Shown here: piece by piece, positions 11,387 through 50,511 of the stretch | Numbering within the stretch: position 1 is the stretch's first letter | How the letters are laid out: each line of letters starts with the position of its first letter | IMG/VR virus record: IMGVR_UViG_3300045988_132745 | Span: 42,131 to 106,130 of that record | Strand: one strand, 5' to 3' | DNA: 64,000 nt | DNA from: a virus | Program-made: the position numbers and the translations under genes | Notes under the pieces: generated by a model | Told to the model about the DNA's origin: nothing | Database searches by the model: none | The model's input: the letters and a program-made list of their open reading frames with translations, nothing else

Positions 11387-12565
11387 ATGAAGAACGTAAA
11401 GATTTTCGCAAAGACCATTGAGCAGGAGGCCAAGGAACAGATTGAGAGGATGGCAGCGAGCGAGGCTTATCGCGATTGTCAGATACGCATTATGCCCGAC
11501 TGTCATGCGGGCAAGGGATGCACGATTGGTACGGTAATTCAGACTGCCGGTAAGGTGGTGCCCAATACCGTAGGCGTGGATATAGGCTGTGGTATGTTGG
11601 TATTCAAGTTCGCTGAGAAGGATATAAACCTTTCGCTTCTCGACCGAATCATCAATGAGTCGGTGCCGAGCGGATTTGACGTTCACGAAAAGTCCAAGCT
11701 AAAAGATATAAGTCCGCTTACGTCACATATTTTGCTCGAATTACACGAAAGGACACAAGGCTGCTTCGACCCCGACTATATCGGACGCTCGCTTGGCACC
11801 CTCGGTGGCGGCAATCACTTCATCGAGTTGGACGAGGACGAGCAGGGTTATAAGTATCTTGTGATACATTCGGGCAGTCGCAATCTCGGAGTTAAGGTGT
11901 GCAACTTTTTCCAACACTTAGCCAAGAAGAATGTGAATCGAAACGAGGAGCGCAAGCGCATCATCGAAGACTTAAAGAAGTACGGCTTAGAGAAGGAGAT
12001 TAACAATACGTTGCGTCGTTTGGGCACCGTGCCTCCCGATCTCGCCTATCTTGAGGGAGAAGACCTCGATGCCTATATTTTCGCAGCGAACGTCTGTCGG
12101 TGTTTTGCAGACGACAACAGATGGAATATAGCAATGACTATCATCCATGGGCTTCATTTACCGTTCGTGGATTTCTTTACCACCAGGCATAACTATTTCG
12201 ACATACACTCAGGCATCATCCGAAAAGGAGCCGTGCGAGCTGCAAAGGACGAACAGCTCATCATTCCGCTCAATATGCGCGACGGTTCGCTTCTGTGTAT
12301 AGGCAAGGGCAACGACGACTGGCTTCAGTCGGCTCCGCACGGAGCTGGCAGACTAATGTCGCGCTCGGCGGCCAAGAAGCAGCTCAGCATGGAGGAATAC
12401 CGACAGCAGATGCACGACATTTACTCCACATCGGTATGCGAGTCAACAATCGACGAGTCACCAATGGCGTACAAGCCAGCCGAAGAGATAGAATCGCTTA
12501 TAGCCGACACTGTGGAAATTAAAAAGCGCATTAAACCTATATACAATTTCAAAGCGAAAGAGTAA
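11387..12565 (+). CDS. rtcB: RtcB-family 3'-phosphate/5'-hydroxyl RNA ligase
   Basis: Metal and GMP-site motifs IMPDCHAGKGCTIG, GGGNHFIEL, HSGSRNLG and PHGAGR, in the canonical order. Confidence 0.9.
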   Translation: MKNVKIFAKTIEQEAKEQIERMAASEAYRDCQIRIMPDCHAGKGCTIGTVIQTAGKVVPNTVGVDIGCGMLVFKFAEKDINLSLLDRIINESVPSGFDVHEKSKLKDISPLTSHILLELHERTQGCFDPDYIGRSLGTLGGGNHFIELDEDEQGYKYLVIHSGSRNLGVKVCNFFQHLAKKNVNRNEERKRIIEDLKKYGLEKEINNTLRRLGTVPPDLAYLEGEDLDAYIFAANVCRCFADDNRWNIAMTIIHGLHLPFVDFFTTRHNYFDIHSGIIRKGAVRAAKDEQLIIPLNMRDGSLLCIGKGNDDWLQSAPHGAGRLMSRSAAKKQLSMEEYRQQMHDIYSTSVCESTIDESPMAYKPAEEIESLIADTVEIKKRIKPIYNFKAKE

Positions 12566-33092: not shown

Positions 33093-36000
33093 ATGACACA
33101 AGCGACAACCAAAGACTATTGGATTTCGCCTTCGGCATTGCATATTGAACTAAATGCCCTTGGCTATCCCGACTATATCCAGGCATCGTGCGTAAGCGGT
33201 GCCCAGATACTTGTGTACGTCAAGGACATTATCGGCTTCGATGCCGGACACAACTACCGACGCTGGCCTTTGCAGGCTGCTGCAACGGTATTCAATACCC
33301 ACACCGAGAAATATGTTTATGTCGCCATTCCTCGCGATATGACGCTCACGGCTTCGGCATGGATAGTATTCCCGTCCGAACAGATAGACATCTACGGCAA
33401 GAATGAAAAAGAAGAGCAGATAGGCGACGAGAAGTTCTATTACATCTTTCTGCAAGGCATCATAACCTCTTCGGGCGATAACGGCACGGTGCAGCGCGAT
33501 TGGAAGAAAGGCGGCAGAATTGTATATGGCTACTTGTCCTCAGACGAAGCTATCAGCGCCATCCCCAATGAAAGCGAGTGGTATAACTATTCTTCGGTAG
33601 ATGGTATCGTGACCTTCCTCAAAGACATCACGATGAAGGCAGGCACCAAATTCCGCCAACTCTTCGCCAATGTGCTAACCATCGTGTCCGGAGGTAAAAT
33701 AGCCTTTGAGGGCCAAGGCGAGGTGAATGGAGTGGCCATTGATTCAACTTCACTTGACTCTGTAGATAAAATTGTTACTCCCAACTATCTTGACAATAAG
33801 GCTCTGTCTAAAGTACATGAAGATGTAGCAAAAAAGGTAATAACCTTCATGGAAGGACTGACGGTTGGAATGGACAAGAAAAAAGGTATTGATGCAAAAG
33901 GCAACGCTGTGTTGGGCGATGTGGTACTCGACCGTGTGCGCGACCCCCACTCTACCGAGGCGGACCGAACCATTATCGGTGCGCAGGGATTTGACCTGTA
34001 CATGGGTGAGGACGGCAAGAGCCACATGTACATTGACTACCTGACGACTCGTGTAAAGATGTTTGCGGCAAGTGCCGAGGTTAGGAAGGTGAGCTATTCG
34101 GGCGGTACAACTATCTTCTCGAACGCTGGTTCTACTATTATTAAGGTGGCTTACATATTCGACGCATCGGGCTCAAAGGTGATAGCGTACAAGTGCTATG
34201 CTGCTGCTGACGATGGTACAACAAGAACCATGAACTGGTGGCATGTGGGCATGATGGCTCTATGCCAGACGTTTAACGTGAAGGCAGGTGAGACAGAGAA
34301 TCTTGCCAATAGATATTATTGGCGCATGGTGGTTGGTGTTGGACAGGAGACATTGGAAGATGGAAAGCTGTACGACTATGTTATGTTGTCGAACATGGCT
34401 ACATTTGTTGGTGGCGACAATGTTATACCGTCGTATTGCTCGAAGCTGATAGCCAAGAAGAAGGTAGCCCTTAAATGGGGTAATATAGCCGTGATGGTGG
34501 CACAGCAAGACGGTATGATGAGTATAGCTCAGCTCTTTGCCGAGCAGGAAGGCGGACGTACACAAGACGATGACAAGAACGAGATTGCGAGTCGTGTATT
34601 CTACGGATATGACGAAGGAAGTGTGGCACCATTGGCGGGTGACGTGATTGTTAATGTGGGAGACCAAATACGTTGGAACTCACGCGGCAATGTTATCAAG
34701 CTGACAACATCGACTGAGGACAACAGTGCGGACACAGCGCCTTCTATCACTATGTACCACGGTATTGGCGCATTGTGGGAGACGGGCAAAGTGGATGCGG
34801 GCAAGCAGCCTGTGCGTAATCCGTACCAGTGGAAAACCGTGACATGTGTAATCTCGCCTGAGCTTACAATGTTCAATACGGAGAGATTCAAATGGTTCTC
34901 GGGTACACCCGATAATCTGATAGACCCTATCACAGTGATGTGGGAGATTGTGCCTACATCAAGCAGCATTGTGCGCCACGTGAGCAACCGCACAACTACG
35001 CCTACAGACATTACCTTTACATTGGTAAAGCATACGGGTAGTAAGGCGGAGACAATAGCTGCCGAGAATGTTGTGTTCAAGGCTACGATAGAGTATCAAA
35101 ATGGCAATAAGCTGAATAATGCTCCTTTCAAGAATTTGTCATCCCTTGCCAGTTTGTACGACATGAAGAGTGTGAAGGTTGACGCTTATCTGAAGGAGGA
35201 AATTAAGGGCACGGATGGACAGACGGAGATGAAGCAGACGCTTGTTAAGAGCACTAATGTGATTGTTACAAGCGACGGTAAGGAAGGTAGCAGCGGACGT
35301 GGCATAGTAAGCGTAAACACCTTCTATGCCTTGGGCGACAATATTACTACCTCGCCTGTAGATGCGGAATACAAATACGATACATTGTCGGCTGTTGTTA
35401 TAAAGAATAATGCCGACAAATACGTATGGAGTGCTGATAAGGTGACATACAGCAACAATACTACGGAGCTTACTGGCAAGTACTGTGTTGGCAAATGTGC
35501 TGACTTGACCAGCGTAACCGAGATGTGGGGTATATCTAATTCGGCAACTGTAAAGCCTACTGTGTGGTCGGACATCTATCCTGACGAGACAAAGCTGACA
35601 CCCGGTACGTACATTTGGAGCCGTGACGAGATAGTTTGGCTGGATGGTACAAAGACGTACAGCGAGGCTCAACTTGTCGGGTATGTAGGTAAGGATGGAG
35701 ATAAGGGAGAACCAGGAACCCCTGGCGACCCAGGTAAGCCTGGAGAACCAGGAGCCGATGGACAGGACGCTATACAAGTAGATTTTTTGCCTACAGCTCT
35801 AACGGTAGAAGCTAATAGCGATAGCAGCGGCAATGCCGTTGTAGATTGTTCGAGCGGTAATATCACAGCAGAGATATTGGTGAGAAGTGGCAGCAAGTCG
35901 GTAATGTCGGCATGCGACAAGATAGAGATTGCGAGTGTTGACGGATGTACAGCCGAGGTGGTAAGGACGGACGTGAACACAGCCAAGGTACGCATAAACT

Positions 36001-38267
36001 CTGTAAGCTACACGACCATTGACGGCAAGCGCATATCGTGGACTACGGCAAGCGTTACCGTGAGAGTACATTGTCTGCTGACGAATCTCTACTACTCGGC
36101 CACACTCGCTATAAACGTCAATGTGGCGGCATTGTGGGGAGAGTACAAGCGCGACATGAAGAGTATGGAGAGCAAGTACACCGAGATAAGCAATACCGTT
36201 AACGGAATACCTATCAAGACCGATACCGACCTGACTAAATACACCTCGAAGATAGAGCAGTCGGCAAGAAATATATCTCTTAAAGTTGGCGAGACCGTTG
36301 TGGGCAGACACAATCTGCTTACGGGCAGCGCATTCGAGAAGAAAACTGACTATTGGACAGGCAACGATGCGTATACGCCCTATATCTCGGTGCTTAACAA
36401 CTATAATGGCTACAACTCGGTTGTGATAGAGGGTAAGAGCGGAGGCAACCGTGGCGTAGATTTTATACGTGTTAAGGTGAAGGAGGCTCGCAAGTATGTT
36501 GTTAGCGCAATGCTCAAATGTAGTGGAGCGGTAAGCGAAGGAGACTTTAATGCGTACATCTTACAACGCGACGGTAGTATGGTCGAATTAAACAAGAACC
36601 TTTTCATACCGTTATCGGTGGCTAAGAACATGGTAGCTAACGAGTGGATGCTTGGAGTAGAGACCTTGACGCTTGATGCCAACACGGTGTTCATCGATTG
36701 TGTATTCCTCTATTACGGCACCAAGACAGCCTATATTGCTTGTCCGCAGATAGCCGAGGGTGAAGAATATGCAGGATATACGCTATCGGAACAAGACCGC
36801 GGCTATATTGGCGGCAACCTGCTAATCAATAGCGACACATTGGTTAAGCCAGAGACCTTGTCTATATACAACTCCGACCCTCTTGTAGTAGACGATACGC
36901 ACACAACCTTGCTGCAAAATGATGATGCAGACAAGTACGGCAGCTATGCTACACTGTATACTGACGCTACATCTGCCGAAATAGACACTATACGTTGGAA
37001 CCTGGATGGCATGAACATCATTAAGCAGGGGCAGATGTATATGTTGTCATTTGTCGCAAAGGGTACTGGAATGTATTATGCCTTCTTGTACAACGACGGT
37101 ACTTCTTCTATCGCTACCGAGGCGAGCGGATTCACAGCTGGCAATACGAGTTCGGGCGGCGGTGCAGCTATTGCATTATCATCGACATGGCAACGATATT
37201 TTGTGTTTTGGCGAGTTGTAGGCGACAAGTTGCCTATATACGTATTGTTCCGCGCCATGAAAGGTAGCAAGCTGTATCTCTCACAACCAAAATTGGAATA
37301 TGGTGCTACAGTAACTGAGTATCGTGCCGAGAAGACTGGCTACGTTGAAGACAAGTCGATAGCTGGCAGTCTGCTTGATGCGGGCATTGACATCAACAGC
37401 AAAGAAATAATGCTCACGGCAGACAAGACGACCTTCAGGACTACCAAAGGCACTAAGGTAGCTATGTTCGACGAGGACGGACTGAACGCTCAACTTGTGA
37501 GAGCACAGCGTCTACAAACCAAAGGTAAGAACGGATTAGAGGTAAGAATAGAGGATGGCATGGTGCAAATCTTCGGCGCAGCTGGTGTGGCTAATATCCG
37601 CTTCGGTCTTGACGATAATGGATATGCCACACTTGGCTATTACGACAACCACGGCAACCTGTTGTACGATCTTGGTCCGAAGGGCGTGGCATCGCTCAGC
37701 CTCTCAAAGGCATCGTTGACAAGAGCTATGTATATAGACCTTGTTGCCGCTGGACTTACAACTCCTTATTACAGCAAGAAGGATGGCTACAACTGGATAA
37801 GCGATGCCAATAACAACAAGGTATTTGGAGTGTTTGCCGTGGCTGACAGATACGTAAGAGACAACCTTGGTGTTAGTGAGGGCATAGAGTTGTACCAATA
37901 TCGCGCGCCTTCCATTAATGGAGAGATTGCTGCTGACAGCGTATACAATCTGACCAAGGCACAGGCAGAGAAGGCTAACGGTTGTTACTTCACAAGCAAT
38001 CAGATACAGGTTATTGGCGACAACTTCCTTAATATAGCCAAGGGCGCGTATCTGCCTTGGGACACCCAAACAGTGGATAACACTAAGTATAGACTACCAG
38101 GAGGTACGAAGGTGCCGAAACTGTTGGTTAGAATGTTTATAACGCAATCACTACTGGGAACAACGCCTGTAGTGAACTTTGAGACAGTGTATGGCGGAGG
38201 CGTATACACGTTTCCTGGAAACGGCACTGACTTGAATGCTGACTTGAATACATATGTAAGGAAATAG
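33093..38267 (+). CDS. giant tail fibre protein with collagen-like Gly-X-Y segment
   Basis: 1724 aa; GKDGDKGEPGTPGDPGKPGEPGADGQD at 35688-35768. Confidence 0.7.
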   Translation: MTQATTKDYWISPSALHIELNALGYPDYIQASCVSGAQILVYVKDIIGFDAGHNYRRWPLQAAATVFNTHTEKYVYVAIPRDMTLTASAWIVFPSEQIDIYGKNEKEEQIGDEKFYYIFLQGIITSSGDNGTVQRDWKKGGRIVYGYLSSDEAISAIPNESEWYNYSSVDGIVTFLKDITMKAGTKFRQLFANVLTIVSGGKIAFEGQGEVNGVAIDSTSLDSVDKIVTPNYLDNKALSKVHEDVAKKVITFMEGLTVGMDKKKGIDAKGNAVLGDVVLDRVRDPHSTEADRTIIGAQGFDLYMGEDGKSHMYIDYLTTRVKMFAASAEVRKVSYSGGTTIFSNAGSTIIKVAYIFDASGSKVIAYKCYAAADDGTTRTMNWWHVGMMALCQTFNVKAGETENLANRYYWRMVVGVGQETLEDGKLYDYVMLSNMATFVGGDNVIPSYCSKLIAKKKVALKWGNIAVMVAQQDGMMSIAQLFAEQEGGRTQDDDKNEIASRVFYGYDEGSVAPLAGDVIVNVGDQIRWNSRGNVIKLTTSTEDNSADTAPSITMYHGIGALWETGKVDAGKQPVRNPYQWKTVTCVISPELTMFNTERFKWFSGTPDNLIDPITVMWEIVPTSSSIVRHVSNRTTTPTDITFTLVKHTGSKAETIAAENVVFKATIEYQNGNKLNNAPFKNLSSLASLYDMKSVKVDAYLKEEIKGTDGQTEMKQTLVKSTNVIVTSDGKEGSSGRGIVSVNTFYALGDNITTSPVDAEYKYDTLSAVVIKNNADKYVWSADKVTYSNNTTELTGKYCVGKCADLTSVTEMWGISNSATVKPTVWSDIYPDETKLTPGTYIWSRDEIVWLDGTKTYSEAQLVGYVGKDGDKGEPGTPGDPGKPGEPGADGQDAIQVDFLPTALTVEANSDSSGNAVVDCSSGNITAEILVRSGSKSVMSACDKIEIASVDGCTAEVVRTDVNTAKVRINSVSYTTIDGKRISWTTASVTVRVHCLLTNLYYSATLAINVNVAALWGEYKRDMKSMESKYTEISNTVNGIPIKTDTDLTKYTSKIEQSARNISLKVGETVVGRHNLLTGSAFEKKTDYWTGNDAYTPYISVLNNYNGYNSVVIEGKSGGNRGVDFIRVKVKEARKYVVSAMLKCSGAVSEGDFNAYILQRDGSMVELNKNLFIPLSVAKNMVANEWMLGVETLTLDANTVFIDCVFLYYGTKTAYIACPQIAEGEEYAGYTLSEQDRGYIGGNLLINSDTLVKPETLSIYNSDPLVVDDTHTTLLQNDDADKYGSYATLYTDATSAEIDTIRWNLDGMNIIKQGQMYMLSFVAKGTGMYYAFLYNDGTSSIATEASGFTAGNTSSGGGAAIALSSTWQRYFVFWRVVGDKLPIYVLFRAMKGSKLYLSQPKLEYGATVTEYRAEKTGYVEDKSIAGSLLDAGIDINSKEIMLTADKTTFRTTKGTKVAMFDEDGLNAQLVRAQRLQTKGKNGLEVRIEDGMVQIFGAAGVANIRFGLDDNGYATLGYYDNHGNLLYDLGPKGVASLSLSKASLTRAMYIDLVAAGLTTPYYSKKDGYNWISDANNNKVFGVFAVADRYVRDNLGVSEGIELYQYRAPSINGEIAADSVYNLTKAQAEKANGCYFTSNQIQVIGDNFLNIAKGAYLPWDTQTVDNTKYRLPGGTKVPKLLVRMFITQSLLGTTPVVNFETVYGGGVYTFPGNGTDLNADLNTYVRK

Positions 38268-38299
38268 CACACAACAACATCTAAAAATTTAAAATAATT

Positions 38300-40636
38300 A
38301 TGGCAGAAAAAACAGAGAAAAGGATTAAGGTGCTGCTTACACCGGGTGGCTCGGAATGGGTGGCGGATAAGGAGTACAAGAGACTTGACTACATCTCGGA
38401 CGGCAAGTCCGTGTGGGTGTGCGTCAAGGTGGATGCCGTGTCGGGTGTAAACGTGGGGCATCCGCTAACGGAGACGGCGTGGTGGAACAAGTGCATCGAC
38501 CTTAGCGAGGCGGAGAGCCTTGCTGGCGAGGCGACTGCTGCAGCTAACGCTGCCGCGACTACCGCCAACAATGCGGCTCAGGCGGCAGAGGATGCCAAGA
38601 CGGCGGCGGAGGCGGCTGTCTCCGAGGCAAACAAGGCTACGGAAGCTGCCAATACCGCGACATCGGCGGCACAGGCTGCCACTGCTGGGGCTAACGACGC
38701 TACTGCTGCCGCCGAGAAGGTGAACGCTGTGCTTGGCGATGACAACGTGCTGAAGGTGACGGACAGAAATGGAGTCGAGAAATCTTTGGAGCTGGTGTCG
38801 CAGGCTGCAGCAACAGAGATAGCGAAGCAGGTGGAGCAGAACACGGCGGACATATCGGGCGTGCAAAAACGTCTCGATATGTTCGGTGATGCTTTTGTAG
38901 GCTTTGCCCGTGTGTCGGGCGATGCCGACCCGAAACCTTCGCAGACCTACATCTACGGCACACGCCAGCTGGTGCGCGAGATTGGCAAGCACATGAAGAT
39001 AGGCACCGTGAAGCGTGTGGGCAACGAAGCTGTGTTGCAGCATGAGGGTGCGCCTGGACGCATAACCAAGGCAAGCAACGGCGAGGCAATGGCTGTGGAT
39101 GGCTCGGAGGGTGACTTGTTGGTATATACCGACATTCCTCTGCATCTTATCAAGGCTAACGAGACTGTCGAAGGACAGGAAATGAGCTGTATGGGCATAG
39201 GTGTAGTGCCTTGCTACTGGATGGGCCATGCAGCCAAGCGACTGGAGCCTTTCGCCTTTGCTCCATTCTATACTGTCAACGCAAAGATATTCGACGATGA
39301 GCGTTCGTGCGCACATTGTATCATCTCTGATGCAGTGGCTGGTACGTCTTTTACGCTTAACGGATTCGTACAAGAGACGTTCCGCCCAAATGCAAATGGT
39401 TATTACAATGTAGGTGTCTCGTCATTGGGATCGATACATAATGCACAGGCTAAGAACGCCGACTCTAACACCAACCGTCCGTACATGGGAGGCTACTATG
39501 AGTTCTACGAGCTGTGGATGACGATGATGTACATTGAGTGCGGCACGCTCAACACTACCGACCTCTACAGCATGGGTGTAGGTCTGACTACAGCCCACTC
39601 GGCAACAGCCGACACTTGGAACAACGAGCGCATTGCTGCAAACTCGGGCATAAAGATGATAGCGGCAGACGGCACGGTGGCAGGTTATGGTGCACTGATG
39701 TCGAAGAGCATGCGCAAGGGTGCAGACGGTAAGGTGGACTATAACCTCTCGGCAGTAGTGGGTAACGGATATTACAGCGCGACTAAGTGCGGAGAGGCAT
39801 TGATGGTGCTCGACGGCATAACTAAGGCAGGATTGCAGAGTAAGGTAGGCTTGTCTACTAATGTGTTCTATTTTGACGAGACGAACAATCTGGTATGCTC
39901 TACATCTATCAATCTTGACACAGGCGAGGGCATGACCCCCAACAAGCGATACTTCGTTGTGCGCGACGTGCCTAACTGTCAGGGTATCGGCGAGGGAGTG
40001 CTCACGGCTGTAATAAATACTTATGTCAAGTTCTCGGTAGCCGACGGTATATATACAGACAGTACCGACCTTACGGGAGGCACGGTAATATACAAGTTCT
40101 CGCATTCGGTGTACCGTGGCATGAGTATTCCTATGGACGGTGCATTCATGCAGCTATGTGGCGCACATTATATGTCTGGACGTACAGCTGAAGATACTGT
40201 CTACGGCAAGTTCTGTTGTGCCGAGAAATGGCAGGACATGGCACCGTTGACAAACGACACTGCCTATGGCGATATTGGCACTGAGTTCAACATTCTAAAG
40301 GGATTGAACAACGTAAAAAGCGTAAGTGGTAACGCAGGATGGGTAAGCAAGGCCGACTATTCTCTGTCGCTGTTCTGCTTTACCGAGCACAGCGGCGGTA
40401 TGCACACTAAGGAGTGCCGCTTTACTTGGAACGGTAATACACTATGGGGCTATGGTGATAGCAATACAGGTTTGCCCGCTACAGGTAAGGAAGGCGTAAA
40501 GGCTCTGGTTGTCGGGTGCAATGCGAACTGTGGCACTGCGTCGGCTTGTACCGCTATTTGCTACTCTGGCGTTAGCAATGGCGATTGGTATTACGCTGGG
40601 GCTTTGGCTGTCCCTCAGCTTAAATTCAAGCAATAA
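38300..40636 (+). CDS. DGR target protein: fibre-like receptor-binding protein with C-terminal variable region
   Basis: Ala-rich coiled-coil N-terminus like neighbouring fibre genes; the last ~40 aa are the VR copy of the downstream TR. Confidence 0.85.
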   Translation: MAEKTEKRIKVLLTPGGSEWVADKEYKRLDYISDGKSVWVCVKVDAVSGVNVGHPLTETAWWNKCIDLSEAESLAGEATAAANAAATTANNAAQAAEDAKTAAEAAVSEANKATEAANTATSAAQAATAGANDATAAAEKVNAVLGDDNVLKVTDRNGVEKSLELVSQAAATEIAKQVEQNTADISGVQKRLDMFGDAFVGFARVSGDADPKPSQTYIYGTRQLVREIGKHMKIGTVKRVGNEAVLQHEGAPGRITKASNGEAMAVDGSEGDLLVYTDIPLHLIKANETVEGQEMSCMGIGVVPCYWMGHAAKRLEPFAFAPFYTVNAKIFDDERSCAHCIISDAVAGTSFTLNGFVQETFRPNANGYYNVGVSSLGSIHNAQAKNADSNTNRPYMGGYYEFYELWMTMMYIECGTLNTTDLYSMGVGLTTAHSATADTWNNERIAANSGIKMIAADGTVAGYGALMSKSMRKGADGKVDYNLSAVVGNGYYSATKCGEALMVLDGITKAGLQSKVGLSTNVFYFDETNNLVCSTSINLDTGEGMTPNKRYFVVRDVPNCQGIGEGVLTAVINTYVKFSVADGIYTDSTDLTGGTVIYKFSHSVYRGMSIPMDGAFMQLCGAHYMSGRTAEDTVYGKFCCAEKWQDMAPLTNDTAYGDIGTEFNILKGLNNVKSVSGNAGWVSKADYSLSLFCFTEHSGGMHTKECRFTWNGNTLWGYGDSNTGLPATGKEGVKALVVGCNANCGTASACTAICYSGVSNGDWYYAGALAVPQLKFKQ
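40508..40618 (+). repeat. DGR variable region (VR)
   Basis: 111 nt aligning to 40994-41104 (offset 486) with 12 differences, all at TR adenines. Confidence 0.85.
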
Positions 40637-40703
40637 AAAGGCAGCAAAAACAAAAAGCTGTCGGCCGTTAGACAACAAGCCTTGAGCGACGCCAACCAGC
40701 TGA

Positions 40704-40727
40704 GGGGCGGCGGCTGTTAGCCGCCCC
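40704..40727 (+). promoter_or_regulatory. GC-rich hairpin downstream of VR (candidate DGR target-recognition element)
   Basis: ggggcggc / gccgcccc perfect 8-bp stem, about 85 nt after the VR end. Confidence 0.5.
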
Positions 40728-40795
40728 GACTGGCGCCTTGTGGAGCTGGCAAATAATCAATAAACTTCAAGTATTTCTCAAAAAACAAAAATATT

Positions 40796-42664
40796 ATGAC
40801 TCTCATCGAACAGAAAAATATCGACACAACGAAGCAGCCATCATCGGAGAATGGGGTGATGTACGGCTGTCCGGTGGGTGCGTCTTGTCATGAAGCACAC
40901 GGTAAGCTCTCTCCTGCGGTGGACGGCAATGTGCCGACCGAGCCGTGTGTGACGGTTGACAAAGACAAAAGCGTGGGTAAGGAAAAGGCTCTCGTTGTCG
41001 GGTGCAATGCGAACAATGGCAATGCGTCGGCTTGTACCGCTAATTGCAACAATGGCGTTAGCAATGACAATTGGAATTACGCTGGGGCTTTGGCTGTCAA
41101 TCAGGTAGAAGATAGCAGGAAACACCTTACAACGCGACCAACAAGGTTAAACATAGCGAACACCCATACCGCCACTGGTGGGTATGGATTGGTAGACTGC
41201 CGCTCATTGCCGTTTTGGAGCGAGAGCACGGAGGCAGACGGCACTATCGGGAATGGTGCCAAACCGATGAAGGCTACCCATGAGGGAAATATCCTCGATG
41301 AATTGAAGACAGCGAATCATAAGAAGAAGCTGAGAAACTTGAAGAGATTTTTGACAGACCCTGTGATTGTGCGCATGGGTGTAGACAGATGTCTGGAGAG
41401 GGCAAGCGACTCGCCCGAAGTGCGCAATATTGAAAACAACAAGGAATACGTAATACAGCGCATAATACGTGAGCTGACCGACGAGACCTACAGATGTCAG
41501 CCTACCGTGCGTCGCATTATCGAGAAGAAAGGCAAGGGCGACAAGAATCGCAATGCCGACATATACACGGTGTATGACAGATGTGTGCAAAACGTGCTGC
41601 TGATAGTAATAAAGGAGAAGCTAACAAACATCATTTCGCCTTATTGCTATTCGGGCATTGAAGGCAGAAGCCTGTGGAGCAACGACAAGCGCGGGTGTAT
41701 GGTGAACCGAATACGTACATACGTAAAGAACCATCCCGATGCGAGCGCAGGATTGACGGACATACGTCATTTCTACGAGACGCTAAAATCGAAGGTGGTG
41801 CTTGGTGTGGTGTTCGAAACTATCACTTGCCCGTTTACACGCCGATTGCTGTGCGACATACTATTGCAGCACGACACGCTCGTTATTGGAGGTACGCTGT
41901 CGCAGATTCTCGCTATGCTTACGTTGACGGAGATGGATAACGAATTGACAAGACGCTTTAAACCGCAATTCTATGGTGGCTTTGGTGACAATCGTATCAT
42001 CATGGACGATGATAGAGAGAAGGTGTTGAAAGCCGTGCATTGGGAAAGGAGTTATCTTGAAGGTAGGTATGGCATGGAGATGAAGGGCGACTATCAGGTG
42101 GTGAGAGTGAAGAATGGCTTTATGTTTTGCAAACAGCACTTTAAAGGGTCGTTTGTGAACGTTAGGTCGGAGCTTAGGCGTAGGGCTATACGTGCAGCAG
42201 GCAGAGGCAGGCAGAACTATGCCGGCTATCACGGAATGTTGATGAAGACGGACAGCAGAAGACTGATACAACTTATAAGAAATGATATTAGACGATTAAA
42301 AAGAATGAAGAATCAAAAAGGAATGTCGGTACGCCCTATGGTTGGCGACAATATCAAACTGGATAAGGTAGAGGGTATGCAGATTGTCATTACAGACTAT
42401 TCGGTACGCCAGAACCATAAGGACAGCGAGTTCTTCGTTCGCTTTCAGTTTGTGGCAATAGGCGACGATGGTAGCAAGCATCTGTTTGTCACCAACAACG
42501 GCAGCTACGAGATAAAGGAGTTCTTCAAACTGGCTGAGGAAGGCAAAGTGAAAATTCCGTTGAAAACGAAGATATGCGCAGAGGGCAAGTCGTTTTACTT
42601 CGAGGGGTATCACACTACGAGTCAGGAGGCATGCGAACTGATATGCGCTAAGTTGGGAATATAG
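40796..42664 (+). CDS. DGR-type reverse transcriptase (maximal ORF; RT domain may start at in-frame ATG 41267)
   Basis: RT motifs KKGKGDKNRNADIYTVYDRCVQNVL, LTDIRHFYETL and DGR-typical VIGGTLSQ (41885-41905); motif C position reads FGDN (41981-41992). Confidence 0.85.
   Translation: MTLIEQKNIDTTKQPSSENGVMYGCPVGASCHEAHGKLSPAVDGNVPTEPCVTVDKDKSVGKEKALVVGCNANNGNASACTANCNNGVSNDNWNYAGALAVNQVEDSRKHLTTRPTRLNIANTHTATGGYGLVDCRSLPFWSESTEADGTIGNGAKPMKATHEGNILDELKTANHKKKLRNLKRFLTDPVIVRMGVDRCLERASDSPEVRNIENNKEYVIQRIIRELTDETYRCQPTVRRIIEKKGKGDKNRNADIYTVYDRCVQNVLLIVIKEKLTNIISPYCYSGIEGRSLWSNDKRGCMVNRIRTYVKNHPDASAGLTDIRHFYETLKSKVVLGVVFETITCPFTRRLLCDILLQHDTLVIGGTLSQILAMLTLTEMDNELTRRFKPQFYGGFGDNRIIMDDDREKVLKAVHWERSYLEGRYGMEMKGDYQVVRVKNGFMFCKQHFKGSFVNVRSELRRRAIRAAGRGRQNYAGYHGMLMKTDSRRLIQLIRNDIRRLKRMKNQKGMSVRPMVGDNIKLDKVEGMQIVITDYSVRQNHKDSEFFVRFQFVAIGDDGSKHLFVTNNGSYEIKEFFKLAEEGKVKIPLKTKICAEGKSFYFEGYHTTSQEACELICAKLGI
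40994..41104 (+). repeat. DGR template region (TR)
   Basis: Asn-codon-rich (AAY) copy of VR lying 5' of the RT domain. Confidence 0.85.
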
Positions 42665-42748
42665 AGTTGGGAATTAGGAGTTAGGAGTTAGGAATTGATC
42701 GCCTATGGCGATTTTGAGTTATTGAATTTTGAATTGAGAATTAAGAAT
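42665..42748 (+). repeat. AATTCAAAA/GAGTTAGGA-arm element with central GC hairpin (copy 2)
   Basis: gagttaggagttaggaattgat-CGCCtatGGCG-attttgagttattgaattttgaattgag; the hairpin plus attttg could terminate the RT transcript. Confidence 0.6.
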
Positions 42749-42761
42749 ATAAAATTTTATT

Positions 42762-43355
42762 ATGGAAATGACAAGAATGATTTTTGAGCAGAAGCAGCCG
42801 AAGGTGGTTGTCTGCAAAAGTGGCAGGGCTATGATTGCTCTTAACGAGCAGGTAGTGAAGTCTGTGGAGAGTGTACCTGTGGGTATGACCGAGGAGGGTG
42901 AAATGCGCTACGAGGAGCGAGAGAAGGAACAGTATGCGTATGATGTGTGCTGGCTTGAGAATGTTGGTACAGAAGCCGACGTGCTCAACTCGGCTAAAGC
43001 GGCTGTGCTCGCCGCTATTGAAGCCTACGACACTTCATCTGCTGTCAACGGCTTTATCCTCAACGGACAGCGTGTTTGGCTCGACAAGGCGACACGTGTA
43101 GGTCTGATGAACTCTACCACTATCGCTAAGGCTATGGGACAGCCTACTACTACACTGTGGTTGGGCGATGTGAAGCTGGTAGTGGAGTGCGACAAGGCTA
43201 TACAGCTGCTCTCGGCACTGGAGATGTATGCCCTGGAGTGCTTTAACGTTACGGCTGCGCACAAGAAGGCTGTAGCGGAAATGAGCACGGTGGAGAGTGT
43301 ACTGGGGTATGACTATACGAAGGGGTACCCGAAGGTGCTGGAAATGAGAGTTTAA
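42762..43355 (+). CDS. DUF4376-like tail-fibre-associated protein
   Basis: ...NGQRVWLDKATRVGL...LLSALEMYALECFNVTAAHKK...YDYTKGYP matches my memory of the DUF4376 pattern. Confidence 0.5.
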   Translation: MEMTRMIFEQKQPKVVVCKSGRAMIALNEQVVKSVESVPVGMTEEGEMRYEEREKEQYAYDVCWLENVGTEADVLNSAKAAVLAAIEAYDTSSAVNGFILNGQRVWLDKATRVGLMNSTTIAKAMGQPTTTLWLGDVKLVVECDKAIQLLSALEMYALECFNVTAAHKKAVAEMSTVESVLGYDYTKGYPKVLEMRV

Positions 43356-43500
43356 GTGAAAAGTGAAGAGTGAAAAATCCATGTGCTTTTGCTTCTTGCG
43401 AGGATTTTGCGCTCTTTTAACTATCGGATTCTTCACTCTTCGTTCTTCACTCTTCACTTTAAAAAGCTATTGGATTTTTCCCTTTTCACTTTTAACTTTT
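43354..43500. repeat. GTGAAGAG/GTGAAAAG low-complexity inverted-repeat element
   Basis: aagtgaaaagtgaagagtgaaaaatcc (43354-43380) faces ggattcttcactcttcgttcttcactcttcactt (43426-43459); then ctattggattttt core. Confidence 0.65.
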
Positions 43501-44294: not shown

Positions 44295-44379
44295 GTGAAA
44301 AACGAAGAGTGAAAAGTTAAAAATCCAATAGTTAAGAGAGCATATGGATTTTTCACTCTTCACTTTTCACTCTTCACTT
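44293..44379. repeat. GTGAAGAG-family long imperfect hairpin
   Basis: aagtgaaaaacgaagagtgaaaagttaaaaatcca ... tggatttttcactcttcacttttcactcttcactt. Confidence 0.7.
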
Positions 44380-44399: not shown

Positions 44400-45440
44400 A
44401 TGAAAAAGATAGTAAGAGGTAATGATTTTACATTGCGCATACCCGTGCGCAAGATTGTGGGGGGCGAGATGCAGAAGTTTCCATTGCCTGCATGCGAGGA
44501 GATTGAGGTGAACCTTGTAAACGCCTTTCGTCGCAGAAGAATGGCGCATACGATAGGTGTGGAGGACGACTCGCTGCTTGAGGTGAGGGTGCAAAGCTCG
44601 GAGATGGCTCTGGGTGCGTATGCCCTTGAGGTGAAGGGCAAGTTGTTTGGCTGTTCATGGCGAAGCAATGAGTATGAACAGATAATGCTTGTGGATAATA
44701 ATGCGTCGGGCGACACAGTGTTTGAGCCACATGAGGGTGAGGACTCGGTTGAGATGGACACGGCTGTTGTGGTGCTGCCTCCTACCGTGGAACTTGGCAA
44801 CCTGATAACGGGGGCAAACGAGGCTATCAAGAAGGCGAATGTGGCTACTGACAGAGCTAATGCTTCGGCAGACAAGGCTGACAAGGCTGCTGCGGACGCT
44901 AAGAGCACGGCTGATACTGCTGCTGCAGAAGCGAAGGCTACTGCGGACGCTGCTGCTGCCGAGGCGAAGAAAACGGCTAATGACGCTGCTGAACTGGCTA
45001 TTACAACTGCTAATGATGCCGCGACCGATGCAGAACAGAGAACGACCGCTGCTATTGCCGAAATGACTAAGCAGACGGACACTACGCTTGCTGCTGTTAC
45101 GCAACAGACAACGGACGCTATTGCTGATGTTAAGCAACAGACTACAGACGCTATTGCTGACGTTAAGCAACAGACAACGGACGCTATTGCTGATGTTAAG
45201 CAACAGACAGATACTGCTATTGCCGACGTGAAGCAACAGACTGCCGATGCTATTGCCAAGAACGACAAGGCTACGACCGATGCTGTGGCTAAGGCTGACA
45301 AGGCTACGGCTGACGCTGTGAAGGCTAAGACGGATGCGGACACGGCTGCGGACAGGGCTAATACGGCTGCAGAAAGATGCGAGAGCGTGAACGTAGATTT
45401 TGATGTGGAAAGAGGAGAATTGGTGATTGTAAGTGAATAG
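44400..45440 (+). CDS. fibre/baseplate protein with Ala-rich coiled coil and tandem 11-aa repeats
   Basis: N-terminal beta-rich domain, then ADKA/AEAK coil and QQTTDAIADVK repeated about 4.5 times. Confidence 0.65.
   Translation: MKKIVRGNDFTLRIPVRKIVGGEMQKFPLPACEEIEVNLVNAFRRRRMAHTIGVEDDSLLEVRVQSSEMALGAYALEVKGKLFGCSWRSNEYEQIMLVDNNASGDTVFEPHEGEDSVEMDTAVVVLPPTVELGNLITGANEAIKKANVATDRANASADKADKAAADAKSTADTAAAEAKATADAAAAEAKKTANDAAELAITTANDAATDAEQRTTAAIAEMTKQTDTTLAAVTQQTTDAIADVKQQTTDAIADVKQQTTDAIADVKQQTDTAIADVKQQTADAIAKNDKATTDAVAKADKATADAVKAKTDADTAADRANTAAERCESVNVDFDVERGELVIVSE
45102..45258 (+). repeat. 33-bp in-frame tandem repeat, about 4.5 copies
   Basis: caacagacaacggacgctattgctgatgttaag units. 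Confidence 0.8.
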
Positions 45441-45506
45441 TGAAAAGGGAAAAATCCAATAGCTTTTAAGAGTAAAAAAGTAAAAGGGTAAAAAAGTAAA
45501 AGGGTT
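45431..45506. repeat. GTGAA/GTAAAAAAG low-complexity intergenic repeat
   Basis: aagtgaatagtgaaaagggaaaaatccaatagcttttaagagtaaaaaagtaaaagggtaaaaaagtaaaaggg. Confidence 0.65.
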
Positions 45507-45511
45507 TTATT

Positions 45512-45940
45512 ATGAAAGCAAGTGACATTTTGATTGACAAACTGAAGCAGTTTGAGGGGTATCGGGCCAAGGCTTACAGATGCCCTGCTGGAGTGTGGAC
45601 GTGTGGGTATGGGCATACCAAGGGCGTAACGGCTCGCACGGCGTGCGACAAAGCGAAGGCTCTTGCATGGCTAAGGTCTGACCTTGCGCCTATCGAGAGC
45701 TTCCTATCGGCTGTGCCTGAGGTGGCGAAGACGCAAGGACGCTTTGACGCATGTGCGGATTTCTGCTTTAATCTTGGTACGGGTGCCTTCCGTGGCTCTA
45801 CGCTCTTTAAACTGATACAGAAGAAGGCTTCGATGGCTGCTATCCAGGCGGAGTTCTTGAAGTGGATTTATGCAGGAGGTAGACCGTTGGAAGGATTGAA
45901 AATGAGAAGACGATGGGAAGCAGGCCGCTTTGCGGAGTGA
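45512..45940 (+). CDS. GH24 (T4/lambda-type) phage lysozyme / endolysin
   Basis: LKQFEGYRAKAYRCPAGVWTCGYGHT catalytic-Glu motif and ...GGRPLEGLKMRRRWE. Confidence 0.85.
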   Translation: MKASDILIDKLKQFEGYRAKAYRCPAGVWTCGYGHTKGVTARTACDKAKALAWLRSDLAPIESFLSAVPEVAKTQGRFDACADFCFNLGTGAFRGSTLFKLIQKKASMAAIQAEFLKWIYAGGRPLEGLKMRRRWEAGRFAE

Positions 45941-45990
45941 AGAGTGAAGAGTGAAAAGTGAAAAATCCAATAGTTATGTAAAAGTGAAAG
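45937..45990. repeat. GTGAAGAG-family intergenic repeat
   Basis: gtgaagagtgaagagtgaaaagtgaaaaatccaatag. Confidence 0.65.
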
Positions 45991-49020: not shown

Positions 49021-50511
49021 ATGTTATGTAAAGATGATTTGGCGAAACCTAATAGGTGGAGCAATGTTAATCTGACGCAAGAACAATATATAGCCAAAGC
49101 AAGAGCCAAATGGGGCGATGCTTACGACTATTCGGAGAGCGTGTATCTTGCCGGACTGAAGCCTATCACTATTCGTTGTGTCAAGCACAATCGTTATTTT
49201 ACGGTACAGGCAGGAAATCATATTAGTTTGAGCCAAAGAGGTCTTTCCGGTGGTTGTCCGTTGTGTGCACAAGAACGTCTTGCTGAGTATAGAGAAAATA
49301 AACATAAGGAGACTTTGAGAAAAAACAAGCAGAAGAAAAAAGAAAGGCAAGAATCTCGCTTGTCTCCTCATGATGTTTTTCTCAAAAAAGCTAAGGCGAA
49401 ATATCCTCTCTATGACTTTTCGCTTGTGAAATATAAAGGTAGAGAAACTTATGTCACTATTATTTGTCCTGTTCATGGCGAGTTTAAGATTAAGCCTCGC
49501 ACACTTCTGAGAGGAGAAAAAGGCAAAAATCCGCATGGTTGTTGGAAGTGTAACGGGATGGTGCCACCCTATGAGCGAGAGAGCGGAATGGAATATTTTA
49601 AGCGTAAAATGTACGAGCTGTATGGCGATAAATACACCTTTATGTGGAGCGACTTCAAACATAAAAAGTCTCAAATCCGTTTCACTTGTAAACAGCATGG
49701 CGAACAGCACCGCAGCGCACAGGTGTTGTTGGAAGGAAAAGGCTGTGAGTATTGCAATGGCAAGCTTTGGCCTACTGATTGGATAAAAAACGCACGGGCT
49801 GTGCATGGAGATAAATACGAATACGACGAGAGCCGACCGCCAAGAATATTTACTGACCGTATTAGGTACAAATGTCCTGTGCATGGATGGCAGGAGACTC
49901 GTTATGATTGTCATGTACAGCAAGGCTGTGGCTGCGCATTGTGTGCAGGAGTTGTTAATAAGTTGTCTGCTGATGAACGAAAACAAATGTGGATAGAGAA
50001 ATGCAAAGCGCGATTTCCGGGCAAGTATTCGTATCGTGATGTGGTGTATGTCAACAATGATACGCCAGTGAAGATATATTGTAAGGAACATCATCTTACT
50101 TTTGAAACTACACCCGATACGCATCTGAGAGGAGCTGGAGGCTGTCCACTATGCACCAAGTCGGTGGGCGAAGTGCAAATATACAAATGGTTAAGCGAAC
50201 ACGATGTTCCCTTTGAAACTCAAAAAAAATTGCCCAACGAGAATATGTTTTGCAAACGTCAGTATCTCGTTGCCGACTTCTATCTGCCCGACCTTAATCT
50301 GATAATCGAAATGAATGGACTGCAACATTATCAGTATGTAGAGCATTTCAACACTAAGGATTGGACGTTTGAGGATCAGCAGATACGCGACGACACCTTG
50401 CGAGCATATTGCTGCGACCACGGTGTGAATCTGCTTGAAATAAAGTATAATGAGATTGGCCGAATACCTAAAATCCTTGCTAAGGCGATAAAGAAATACG
50501 GCAAGCGATAG
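49021..50511 (+). CDS. five-fold zinc-ribbon repeat protein with C-terminal Vsr/DUF559-like PD-(D/E)XK endonuclease domain
   Basis: Five repeats of the form G.KY.Y...........I...C..HG.F.....HL.G.GCP.C; C-terminus VADFYLPDLNLIIEMNGLQH matches the vDF...l.iE.dG.qH core. Confidence 0.65.
   Translation: MLCKDDLAKPNRWSNVNLTQEQYIAKARAKWGDAYDYSESVYLAGLKPITIRCVKHNRYFTVQAGNHISLSQRGLSGGCPLCAQERLAEYRENKHKETLRKNKQKKKERQESRLSPHDVFLKKAKAKYPLYDFSLVKYKGRETYVTIICPVHGEFKIKPRTLLRGEKGKNPHGCWKCNGMVPPYERESGMEYFKRKMYELYGDKYTFMWSDFKHKKSQIRFTCKQHGEQHRSAQVLLEGKGCEYCNGKLWPTDWIKNARAVHGDKYEYDESRPPRIFTDRIRYKCPVHGWQETRYDCHVQQGCGCALCAGVVNKLSADERKQMWIEKCKARFPGKYSYRDVVYVNNDTPVKIYCKEHHLTFETTPDTHLRGAGGCPLCTKSVGEVQIYKWLSEHDVPFETQKKLPNENMFCKRQYLVADFYLPDLNLIIEMNGLQHYQYVEHFNTKDWTFEDQQIRDDTLRAYCCDHGVNLLEIKYNEIGRIPKILAKAIKKYGKR

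Follow-up and report, generated by a model that had tools for sequence, protein, structure and literature searches.

How does the 3' end of a phage fibre gene come to be repeated inside a neighbouring reverse transcriptase (RT) gene, and what does the second copy do? The window analysed here is a 64-kb stretch of the ~105-kb genome of a gut Caudoviricetes phage, whose host is probably a member of the Bacteroidaceae. We consider it very likely that the locus is an active, Avd-less diversity-generating retroelement (DGR) that diversifies the C-terminus of the fibre protein. This reading is directly supported by the adenine-specific pattern of mismatches between the template copy (TR) and the variable copy (VR), by natural hypervariability at the adenine-templated sites and by the DGR-type fold of the RT, as well as by a conserved open leader frame and by covariation in the spacer RNA. 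A sequence-only reading of the locus had already proposed a DGR, and the three checks that came with it (a computed alignment, placement of the RT and VR heterogeneity) were run or approximated, with none speaking against it. The DGR itself is of an ordinary kind; its odd parts are the catalytic motif of the RT, the location of the template RNA within the RT coding sequence and an additional domain at the RT C-terminus.

Adenine-specific variation at the end of a fibre gene

The target gene (38300–40636, plus strand) encodes a 778-aa protein resembling tail-fibre or receptor-binding proteins and carries VR at its C-terminus. An Ala-rich coiled coil (aa 67–181) matches PHROG tail-fibre families, and the AF2 model of aa 200–778 matches the BFVD entries 'Receptor binding complex', crAss-like 'Tail fiber protein' and 'Tail collar fiber protein', with E-values from 3.7e-19 to 3.6e-4; the neighbouring genes encode a 1724-aa fibre-like protein and a DUF4376 tail-fibre protein. 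No Mtd-like C-type lectin fold could be confirmed: Foldseek against the PDB did not recover one (best E 0.4), and the model has low confidence at the VR tip. The VR-encoded part of the protein would be the one that binds the receptor.

A repeat search found one direct repeat, pairing VR (40498–40618) with TR (40984–41104), both on the plus strand, 121 nt long, 89% identical and spaced by 486 nt; VR is single, no second one being present in the 64-kb window. Gapless comparison over the 121 nt gave 13 mismatches, 12 of which are an A in TR and T, G or C in VR (TR positions 41015, 41016, 41022, 41043, 41048, 41051, 41052, 41067, 41069, 41075, 41099 and 41100), bearing out, to the nucleotide, all the adenine differences previously claimed by eye. 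The thirteenth (G at 40507 in VR, C at 40993 in TR; synonymous, Leu CTG/CTC) lies 1 nt 5' of the 111-nt span to which that claim referred, so that 'every difference is an A' holds for 40994–41104, where the computed alignment has zero non-A substitutions. TR has 30 adenines, 27 of them in the 111-nt span; the chance of 12 random mismatch sites there all falling on A is 4.4e-9, and that of at least 12 of 13 doing so in the 121-nt repeat is 8e-8. The translations likewise reproduce the nine changed codons, with eight Asn AAY codons giving C, T, I, Y, S, D, Y and P, and GAC giving GGC.

At the GC-rich 3' end, said to be invariant, the 18-mer gctggggctttggctgtc is indeed identical at 40595–40612 in VR and 41081–41098 in TR. 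In VR it forms, with a constant CC at 40613–40614, an IMH-like boundary (40595–40614, plus strand); in TR the IMH*-like 18-mer, on the same strand, is followed by AA at 41099–41100. CC occupies this position in 12/13 related loci (the exception, L006, has AAT), Pro772 is found in 34/34 fibre homologues, and the distant relatives L017 and L019 share the AA-to-CC boundary. Of the twelve supposed mutations, the last two A-to-C differences, constant in relatives, look like IMH/IMH* markers and not like fresh mutagenesis.

Between the target and RT genes lies a conserved GC-rich hairpin (40704–40727, without strand assignment; 8-bp stem, 8-nt loop), whose stem shows compensatory changes in the alignment of 13 loci (GGGG/CCCC, GTAG/CTAC, GGAG/CTCC). 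It is a candidate terminator or target-recognition hairpin, and is unlike the cruciform of BPP-1 (PMC3240598) because it lies 86 nt beyond the end of VR homology and has no GRNA tetraloop; within 4–34 bp of the present VR such a cruciform is absent, this being the nearest conserved hairpin.

The same asymmetry is seen in 13 related loci, each with its own TR/VR pair, in which TR adenines are mismatched at 168/380 sites (44.2%) and non-adenines at 9/1154 (0.5–1.2% for each of C, G and T). The adenines are replaced by T (63), G (63) and C (42), and the rate agrees with the A-site mismatch of ~50% reported for BPP-1 and Bacteroides DGRs (bioRxiv 10.1101/2024.11.15.621889). TR is near-identical between close relatives and their VRs differ; comparing VRs of loci with near-identical TRs gave 33/4, 84/6, 54/2 and 17/0 differences at A-sites and other sites, respectively. 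Rare G-to-T changes also occur among homologues, besides the non-A difference at 40507.

At the protein level, 34 near-identical fibre homologues (92–100% identity) from other metagenomes were compared. The ten AAY-templated residues are hypervariable, with 7–11 residue types and entropies of 2.2–3.2 bits, and the residues flanking them are invariant; the hypervariable codons span 40520–40594 (plus strand; aa 741–765). Single-A codons vary as expected, D761 to D/G/V and T751 to A/S/T. All 34 VRs are distinct, and nine pairs of proteins identical outside VR, over the 738 residues beyond the aligned VR stretch, differ at 7–14 VR residues, as do three further pairs that are one residue apart outside VR. 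The expected VR heterogeneity was thus found in silico, concentrated at sites templated by TR adenines, in comparisons between assemblies of different samples rather than within one population.

The reverse transcriptase and its leader

The RT had been described as following TR. Its 622-aa ORF (40796–42664, plus strand), however, starts 188 nt before TR and continues across it in the frame of VR, and therefore does not follow it: TR is internal (aa 64–103). More than 100 homologues have a length of 621–628 aa. The ORF comprises a leader (aa 1–159; 40796–41272) that holds TR and a spacer RNA, a core of fingers, palm and thumb (aa 160–506; 41273–42313; pLDDT above 90) and a C-terminal domain (aa 514–622; 42335–42661), all on the plus strand.

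In the core, motif A is represented by Asp322 (41759–41761), and the predicted DGR-type IGGTLSQ (41885–41905; GxxxSQ) is present, but motif C (41981–41992) is FGDN instead of YxDD, HMMER aligning it to YMDD of the BPP-1 bRT. D322, G365, S369 and D398 are invariant in the alignment A2; several members of the RT family, L019 among them, have SP in place of SQ. The best match among solved structures is the BPP-1 DGR RT (8ub7_A), both by sequence (E 8.8e-6) and by fold, as the top Foldseek hit of the core (E 1.3e-14, TM 0.86 over the target), a placement that approximates the proposed RT phylogeny and supports the DGR assignment; the RT also matches PHROG 1423 'reverse transcriptase' (E 2e-31).

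A Pfam search of the 73 ORFs of the window gave no Avd-family match among the 25 listed of 27 matched families. Without Avd the element is therefore not a BPP-1-type cassette; a DGR lineage that has no Avd is known from Bacteroides and its relatives (PMC5758913). The C-terminal domain, of mixed beta/alpha structure (pLDDT 83–92), is conserved across the family and also in ~430-aa sister RTs; it has no Pfam match, and its best PDB sequence match has E = 0.13. It may take a role in place of Avd.

Downstream of TR, RNAalifold predicts a spacer RNA element (41136–41187, plus strand) made up of hairpin A (41136–41148; 4-bp stem, ANCAA loop), a 15-nt linker and hairpin B (41164–41187; 10 bp, bulged G, triloop). 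In a 10-sequence family alignment, 140/140 cells are paired and 11/14 pairs show compensatory changes, a level reached by 0/500 shuffles, with slid controls at most 40% paired. No Rfam family matches the element. In BPP-1, the spacer downstream of TR is an element for priming and RNP assembly (PMC6182149).

Alternative explanations and a proposed mechanism

One alternative is a plain segmental duplication of the fibre gene's 3' end, unrelated to the RT, whose copies are drifting apart through point mutation or gene conversion; a direct repeat of 121 nt with 89% identity can originate in this way. Here, however, the mismatches sit at a single base type in only one of the two copies (P 4e-9), this asymmetry recurs in 13 related and 3 distantly related loci, TR is conserved where VR is variable, and the conserved copy is always enclosed by or adjoining an RT gene; independent assemblies from many samples oppose an assembly artefact as the cause of the A-bias. 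The computed base-specificity leads us to reject duplication, whose probability we regard as negligible. A fossil DGR, in which the A-pattern records past activity, the FGDN enzyme is dead and VR differences are old alleles shuffled by recombination, would account for the Asn in place of the second catalytic Asp and for a Pfam RVT_1 score (20.5 bits) under the gathering cut-off of 29.6. Other RTs with the second Asp mutated are usually dead. In a 2012 survey, moreover, both YxDD aspartates were 100% conserved among DGR RTs (PMC3521204). Both points speak against catalytic competence of the FGDN RT, which we infer from the natural variation. On the other side, all 20 homologues of 69–98% identity carry FGDN, which is retained down to 32%, and the core dN/dS of 0.06 (pS 0.73) fits strong selection on the protein. 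The 7–14 VR differences between otherwise identical proteins imply turnover faster than ordinary drift; all 34 VRs are distinct, and differences are confined to A-sites and use all three alternative bases. Independent xDN RTs (L017, L019 and, with YADN, L020) also adjoin A-specific TR/VR pairs, with 12/15 and 18/18 for two distant FGDN relatives whose RTs are 48% and 38% identical to the present one, the latter count being that of L019. We therefore hold a fossil element to be highly improbable.

Less easily set aside, though still unlikely in our judgement, is that the RT starts internally at M158 (41267), so that, as in classical DGRs, TR and spacer would lie in a 5' UTR, and the length of the ORF would be a by-product of TR copying coding sequence. 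The leader is predicted to be disordered (AF2 pLDDT ~30), an in-frame ATG is present at M158, and one homologue (P0024, 465 aa) is called from that position. The leader dN/dS is 0.42 (aa 1–63), 0.29 (TR) and 0.88 (aa 104–157), and the last value, together with low synonymous divergence across the leader (pS ~0.33), suggests RNA-level rather than protein-level constraint; judged by these codon ratios, protein-level constraint on the leader is weak. Yet frame 0 has no stops over 130–184 codons in 14 lineages, against 1–23 in the other frames, in a set biased towards open frames because its lineages were identified through proteins called at full length, and VR homology accounts for only ~40 of those codons. 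Many homologues have L, T or I instead of M158, L017 has no ATG, GTG or TTG from TR to the conserved N-terminal helices of the RT and has a stop directly upstream of its ATG, leader indels are in frame, and the linker between the hairpins is always 15 nt.

On the reading that we prefer, an active DGR, the 622-codon RT gene would yield one RNA, with TR and the two-hairpin spacer in its first 480 nt; translation of the RT from this RNA probably begins at the ATG at 40796 and runs through TR. The RT would assemble on the spacer hairpins of its own RNA, presumably acting in cis and with self-priming, and copy TR into cDNA, inserting any of the bases wherever the template has an adenine. This cDNA would then substitute for the last ~100 nt of the fibre gene, with the 3' junction defined by the GC-rich 18-mer and the CC/AA difference that distinguishes VR from TR. 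As an outcome, ~10 AAY-templated residues and a few single-A codons, within the C-terminal 30 residues of the 778-aa tail-fibre or receptor-binding protein, would be repeatedly re-randomised while scaffold residues stay fixed.

Relation to known systems

The DGR of Bordetella phage BPP-1 (mtd-avd-TR-brt), which the sequence-only reading took as its paradigm, is matched in the AAY template and the C-terminal VR, and departed from in the lack of Avd, the TR inside the RT ORF and FGDN. In both elements a phage receptor-binding gene carries VR at its 3' end, TR lies on the same strand as the RT core and upstream of it, adenine-specific substitution has AAY codons as its main template, VR and TR have in common an invariant GC-rich 3' end, followed just downstream by the bases that distinguish them, structured RNA lies 3' of TR, and the RT cores superpose (TM 0.86). 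In BPP-1, however, avd and brt flank a non-coding TR and spacer, motif C reads YMDD, and the RT has 328 aa, compared to 622 aa with a ~110-aa C-terminal domain here; the present target also has no detectable similarity to Mtd or C-type lectins.

Similar in organisation are the Avd-less 'Lineage 3' DGRs (Wu et al. 2018, PMC5758913), for example that of crAssphage LMMB (PMC7290462, MT006214), the features in common being the order target-VR-TR-RT with no avd, phages of Bacteroidales-type gut hosts, a target structurally resembling tail-collar fibre proteins and an RT C-terminal extension past the thumb. The RT of LMMB shares only 24% identity with the present one, has the canonical YADD and 431 aa, and, unlike the present RT, starts downstream of an intergenic TR; the two fibre proteins have no detectable sequence similarity. 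In an epsilon crAss-like phage (PMC11054128) the DGR RT has GxxxSP, keeps YxDD and has an intergenic TR; it is a precedent for phage DGR RTs whose departures from hallmark motifs cause myDGR to miss them. In the present family, SP for SQ is shared by several members, whereas the RT of the window keeps SQ and alters the catalytic loop. Overlap of TR with the 5' end of an annotated RT ORF has been catalogued before, in the 'group 3' cassettes of DiGReF (PMC3521204); by comparison, the present TR is wholly internal (codons 64–103), is followed by ~55 further leader codons that encode structured RNA, and belongs to a family that keeps the frame open down to 32% identity.

Adenine-confined variation in the fibre gene

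A repeat search within positions 38000–43500 returned a single long direct repeat, 121 nt in length and 89% identical, whose copies at 40498–40618 and 40984–41104 have a spacing of 486 nt. The first copy, the variable repeat (VR), encodes amino acids 734–773 of the 778-aa fibre protein (38300–40636, + strand), and the second, the template repeat (TR), lies in the reverse transcriptase (RT) ORF (40796–42664, + strand, 622 aa). In a gapless comparison the copies differ at 13 positions, at 12 of which a TR adenine stands against T, G or C in VR; these 12 coordinates are exactly those of an earlier sequence-only reading of this DNA, which had proposed a diversity-generating retroelement (DGR) with a 111-nt repeat (40994–41104 in TR). 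The remaining mismatch (G at 40507, C at 40993) is a synonymous leucine change 1 nt beyond that span. Given 27 adenines per 111 TR bases, the probability that 12 random mismatch sites would all hit A is 4.4e-9. The comparison also bore out the codon count of the sequence-only reading (eight Asn AAY codons and one GAC change), as well as the 18-mer common to both copies. TR holds 11 Asn AAY codons, ten of which template hypervariable residues, and the eleventh (N772) falls at a constant CC/Pro position. Scoring of the non-A positions on both strands revealed no further repeat copy or second VR in the window, the next best score being 45/91.

We compared the window with 12 IMG/VR loci whose RTs are 69–98% identical to its own (13 loci in all), each of which has a TR/VR pair of its own in the corresponding position. 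Pooled over the 13 loci, 168 of 380 TR-A sites (44.2%) are mismatched to VR, as against 2/357 for C, 5/412 for G and 2/385 for T; adenines thus account for 168 of the 177 mismatches, and all five G cases, among the nine at non-A sites, lie at the repeat edge. The replacing base was T or G in 63 cases each and C in 42, and the observed 44% agrees with the mutational density of ~50% reported for A sites in BPP-1 and Bacteroides DGRs (bioRxiv 10.1101/2024.11.15.621889). Within groups of loci that have near-identical TRs, VR–VR differences at A sites and at other sites stand at 33:4, 84:6, 54:2 and 17:0.

At the protein level, 34 fibre homologues from different samples (each 778 aa, 92–100% identical) show 7–11 amino-acid types at each of the ten AAY-templated residues, with an entropy of 2.2–3.2 bits; the scaffold residues beside these positions do not vary, and entropy averages 0.10 bits elsewhere. 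Codons with a single A vary as predicted (GAC to D, G or V; ACC to T, A or S), and there is no stop in any of the 34 VR variants. Twelve fibre pairs differ at 7–14 VR residues, with the other 738 residues identical (nine pairs) or carrying one change (three pairs). The sequence-only reading had proposed, as a test, that polymorphism should be confined to positions templated by TR adenines; as approximated from public assemblies, variation between samples does fall on the A sites, and TR is stable. We consider that this A-confined variation among 13 loci and 34 fibre homologues demonstrates, as far as sequence comparison can, that adenine-specific retrohoming in this phage lineage is ongoing or very recent.

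The twelve differences had all been taken as mutations. While every one of them does sit on a TR adenine, two, at 40613–14, are of another kind. Here a GC-rich 18-mer shared by both copies is followed by a constant CC in VR and AA in TR: residue 772, Asn in the TR frame, is Pro in 34/34 fibre homologues, CC is present in the VR of 12 of the 13 loci, and the same AA/CC boundary recurs in relatives whose RTs are merely 38–48% identical. Because of this constancy, the two bases are read as fixed VR/TR markers rather than as products of current mutagenesis, with a presumed function in the sense of the 3' boundary elements IMH (VR) and IMH* (TR). The sole related locus that lacks the otherwise constant CCT is L006, whose VR (L006:5000–5120) has AAT at this boundary, like TR; retrohoming could here have continued beyond the usual 3' crossover.

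A reverse transcriptase carrying FGDN

The RT scores below threshold against Pfam RVT_1 (20.5 vs the cut-off of 29.6 bits), and its best NCBIfam match, a group II RT, is also sub-threshold; it matches PHROG 1423 'reverse transcriptase' at 2e-31. The closest solved structure is that of the BPP-1 DGR RT (8ub7_A), which leads in the sequence comparison (E 8.8e-6) and again when the predicted model is compared by fold (E 1.3e-14, TM 0.86 on target, 3.4 Å), and the RT adjoins TR/VR in every lineage checked. An AlphaFold2 (AF2) model divides the protein into an N-terminal stretch with a pLDDT of about 30 (aa 1–159), a core with a pLDDT >90 (aa 160–506) and a separate C-terminal domain with a pLDDT of 83–92 (aa 514–622). 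This last domain has no Pfam match, its best hit among PDB sequences, the TFIIH p62 PH domain, is not significant (E = 0.13), and its synonymous sites were saturated, so that the computation yielded no dN/dS for it.

Motif 4, found at aa 364–370 as the IGGTLSQ that the sequence-only reading had pointed out, follows the [LIV]GxxxSQ pattern and is invariant among close homologues, with SP in more distant family members. Motif C reads FGDN (aa 396–399), which HMMER aligns with high posterior probability to the YMDD of bRT, the BPP-1 enzyme, and which the AF2 model places at a beta-hairpin turn between strands 392–396 and 399–404. A 2012 survey of DGR RTs reported 100% conservation of both YxDD aspartates and, at position 2, M, V, A or C (PMC3521204), so FGDN truly falls outside what has been documented; a literature search for RTs with YxDN retrieved nothing relevant.

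Such a departure could mark a decaying enzyme, and decay is argued against by the dN/dS of 0.06 in the RT core. All 20 homologues of 69–98% identity have FGDN, and FGDNR persists among cluster representatives as distant as 32% identity, the single exception being YGDD in protein P0134. The family is small (26 representatives of 50% identity clusters with E < 1e-30 among 1.84 billion), and among sister RTs with the same C-terminal domain YADD, YMDD or FCDD predominate, although three carry FTDN, FADN or YADN. In the repeat pairs of relatives, mismatches fall on A at 12/15 sites in L017 and 18/18 in L019, both FGDN loci, the latter combining FGDN with CLSP (RT P0128), and at 16/16 sites in L020, whose RT (P0166) has YADN and GDPISH in place of SQ; for a further locus with an FTDN enzyme (P0146, L021) the contig was too short to contain a TR/VR pair. 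Because the pairs of L019 and L020 are A-specific throughout, adenine mutagenesis in this clade seems to depend neither on SQ nor on the second aspartate, and judging from such A-specific pairs in xDN relatives, FGDN does not remove DGR function. The interpretation of the locus as a DGR is very probably correct, and the element, from its sequence record, works like one.

Template, leader and spacer RNA in the RT frame

The RT ORF had been described as following TR. Instead, it starts at 40796 and spans the repeat (codons 64–103), in the same frame as VR. Nei–Gojobori estimates over eight locus pairs gave dN/dS values of 0.42 for leader residues 1–63, 0.29 for TR (aa 64–103) and 0.88 for leader residues 104–157, each with a pS of about 0.33, compared with 0.06 and a pS of 0.73 in the RT core; these values point to a leader that is constrained at the nucleotide level and weakly as protein, and the weak protein constraint fits the disorder predicted for it.

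Whether this leader is translated depends on where the RT begins. Frame 0 has no stop in the 130–184 leader codons of 14 lineages, compared with 1–23 stops in the other two frames, and leader indels are in frame. In this phage M158 is the one ATG at which the RT could plausibly start internally, and many homologues have L, T or I there; in L017, the stretch from TR to the conserved helices at the N-terminus of the RT core has no ATG, GTG or TTG, and a stop codon immediately precedes the upstream ATG of that locus. Together, these features make it likely that translation starts upstream of TR; since the 14 lineages were found via called proteins, which favours open frames, we infer this start rather than take it as established. 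Overlap of TR with annotated RT ORFs was catalogued earlier as DiGReF 'group 3' (PMC3521204), and a limited literature search found no description of a fully internal TR with a structured spacer inside a conserved ORF.

RNAalifold indicated helices with compensatory changes in the 215 nt 3' of TR, and the comparison was widened to remote members of the family, retrieved through exact-protein matches. Two hairpins result, A at 41136–41148 (4-bp stem, ANCAA loop) and B at 41164–41187 (10 bp with a bulged G and a triloop), joined by an invariant linker of 15 nt. An invariant AAAC at 41149–41152, between the two, is a candidate site of cDNA priming. In a gapless alignment of ten sequences, standard pairs occupy 140/140 cells of the two hairpins and 11 of 14 pairs show compensatory double changes; this pairing was reached by 0/500 shuffles, and sliding the partners by 1–3 columns left 26–40% paired. 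Double-change cells number 30 vs 6.4 expected, a contrast that is inflated since the structure was chosen from the tested sequences, although the excess lies well beyond what this choice would produce. No Rfam family covers the hairpin region, the whole window yielding a tRNA only (a tRNA-Met(CAT) gene lies at 1004–1078). In BPP-1, a non-coding spacer 3' of TR recruits the complex of bRT with the accessory protein Avd and supplies the priming 2'-OH (PMC6182149); because of their position and conservation, hairpins A and B are probably the functional analogue of that spacer.

The 159 nt between the fibre stop (40636) and the RT ORF start (40796) leave no room for avd, and there was no Avd-family Pfam among the matches listed (25 of 27 families) for 73 window ORFs at E ≤ 1e-3. 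This intergenic region does contain a GC-rich conserved hairpin (40704–40727) with compensatory stem changes among relatives. The cruciforms of BPP-1-type elements are GC-rich hairpins with a GRNA tetraloop, 4–34 bp downstream of VR (PMC3240598); the hairpin here was rejected as such a cruciform on account of its distance from VR (86 nt downstream) and its 8-nt loop. In L004, a related locus whose VR/TR pair remains A-specific, a deletion has removed the 5' half of this hairpin. Scans for sigma-70 promoters and intrinsic terminators across 40400–42900 gave counts near shuffled expectation, and are uninformative for a Bacteroidetes-type phage.

In a larger picture, which we hold to be doubtful, one RNA would serve as message, template and primer scaffold; ribosomes would read through TR and the two-hairpin spacer, every RT molecule would thus be made on the very RNA that holds its template and would load in cis, and its C-terminal domain together with the spacer would replace Avd. 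The polymerase would work with an FGDN loop, against the rule that the YxDD aspartates are indispensable, and this loop might add to adenine infidelity.

The target fibre, its surroundings and known systems

The N-terminal domain of the 778-aa target corresponds to PHROG 20680, and its Ala-rich coiled coil matches tail-fibre PHROGs; there was no match in Pfam or NCBIfam. Its C-terminal region was modelled with an AF2 pLDDT of 72.5, falling below 50 at the VR tip, and in the predicted fold it matches BFVD viral models of a receptor-binding complex, a crAss-like tail fibre and a tail-collar fibre; a Foldseek search of the fibre model against the PDB gave nothing below E 0.4, and thus speaks neither for nor against a C-type lectin fold of the kind that displays the VR in Mtd, TvpA and TaqVP. 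The genes neighbouring the cassette are fibre-like, the target being flanked by a 1724-aa fibre-like protein and a DUF4376 tail-fibre protein, and a receptor-binding role for the target can reasonably be inferred. The 1724-aa protein, encoded upstream at 33093–38267, carries a collagen-like Gly-X-Y stretch (GKDGDKGEPGTPGDPGKPGEPGADGQD) and has weak tail-fibre PHROG matches.

Downstream, a 14-nt tandem repeat (AGTTGGGAATTAGG, 3.4 copies, 42651–42697) directly follows the RT stop and gives way to GAATT-rich repeats up to 42760. Beyond the DGR, gene boundaries carry short tandem arrays of the heptad GTGAA[GA]A, at 43356–43374 (+), 43446–43457 (−), 44352–44377 (−), 45433–45444 (+) and 45937–45962 (+), with ten matches to GTGAAGAGTGAA at ≤1 mismatch vs 0.38 expected. 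Some of these arrays form inverted repeats (43354–43498), and they may represent a regulatory or terminator motif peculiar to this phage. A 346-aa ORF without a family match (44400–45440) contains about five copies of a 33-nt/11-aa tandem repeat, ADVKQQTTDAI (45088–45256), inside an Ala/Thr-rich region resembling a coiled coil; it probably encodes a further fibre component whose repeat number varies. Elsewhere, the window encodes an RtcB tRNA-splicing ligase (11387–12565), a 496-aa HNH/homing-endonuclease-like protein (49021–50511), a LysR-type regulator, a GNAT acetyltransferase, an N6/N4 DNA methylase, two YopX and five HTH_3 proteins.

Among 50,697 GenBank phage records, megablast of the locus and of window positions 1–25000 and tblastn of the fibre gave no match, and tblastn of the RT gave four, at ≤29% identity, so the phage is missing from that collection. 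A 106,160-bp contig carries a fibre protein identical to the target, and one relative falls in a Bacteroidaceae MAG bin, which is weak evidence for the host.

DGRs acting on gut-phage fibres are very common, and the bare finding adds one more member. Its weight lies in the details. A whole RT lineage apparently carries out adenine-specific mutagenic retrohoming using FGDN for YxDD, and in some members SP for SQ, which relaxes two motifs by which DGR RTs are recognised and their chemistry is explained. Owing to these variants, motif-based tools such as myDGR may miss such elements. The conserved spacer with its two hairpins, the C-terminal domain and a template that ribosomes probably read through offer mutable parts for testing how ribonucleoproteins (RNPs) assemble in Avd-less DGRs, a question posed by Wu et al. 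2018 (PMC5758913), and a single-gene cassette, an RT with a built-in template, would be an attractive compact tool for targeted diversification.

Set against known systems, the locus has the A-confined TR/VR pair, the 3' VR in a coding target, AAY codons, hypervariability of VR with a stable TR and an IMH/IMH* pair expected of a DGR, and it departs in carrying FGDN rather than YxDD with both aspartates. Unlike the BPP-1 cassette, which includes avd for a four-helix-bundle protein, it is Avd-less, and it also lacks the GRNA-tetraloop cruciform of that type. Avd-less DGRs form 'Lineage 3' of Bacteroides and relatives, mechanistically an unexplained variation (PMC5758913); the architecture here matches that lineage in the absence of avd and the order target–TR–RT, although the evidence for a Bacteroides-type host is weak. 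A phage example of an Avd-less DGR, crAssphage LMMB (PMC7290462), has a Lineage 3 RT that is 24% identical to the one described here, with YADD and without a TR inside it, and a fibre with no sequence similarity to ours. Epsilon crAss-like phages, in which a GxxxSP departure from the hallmark makes myDGR blind (PMC11054128), provide a precedent for departures in hallmark motifs such as those seen here. The element is set apart by an FGDN loop in an apparently active lineage, by a TR and a covariation-supported spacer RNA within a conserved RT frame, and by an Avd-less organisation with an extra RT domain.
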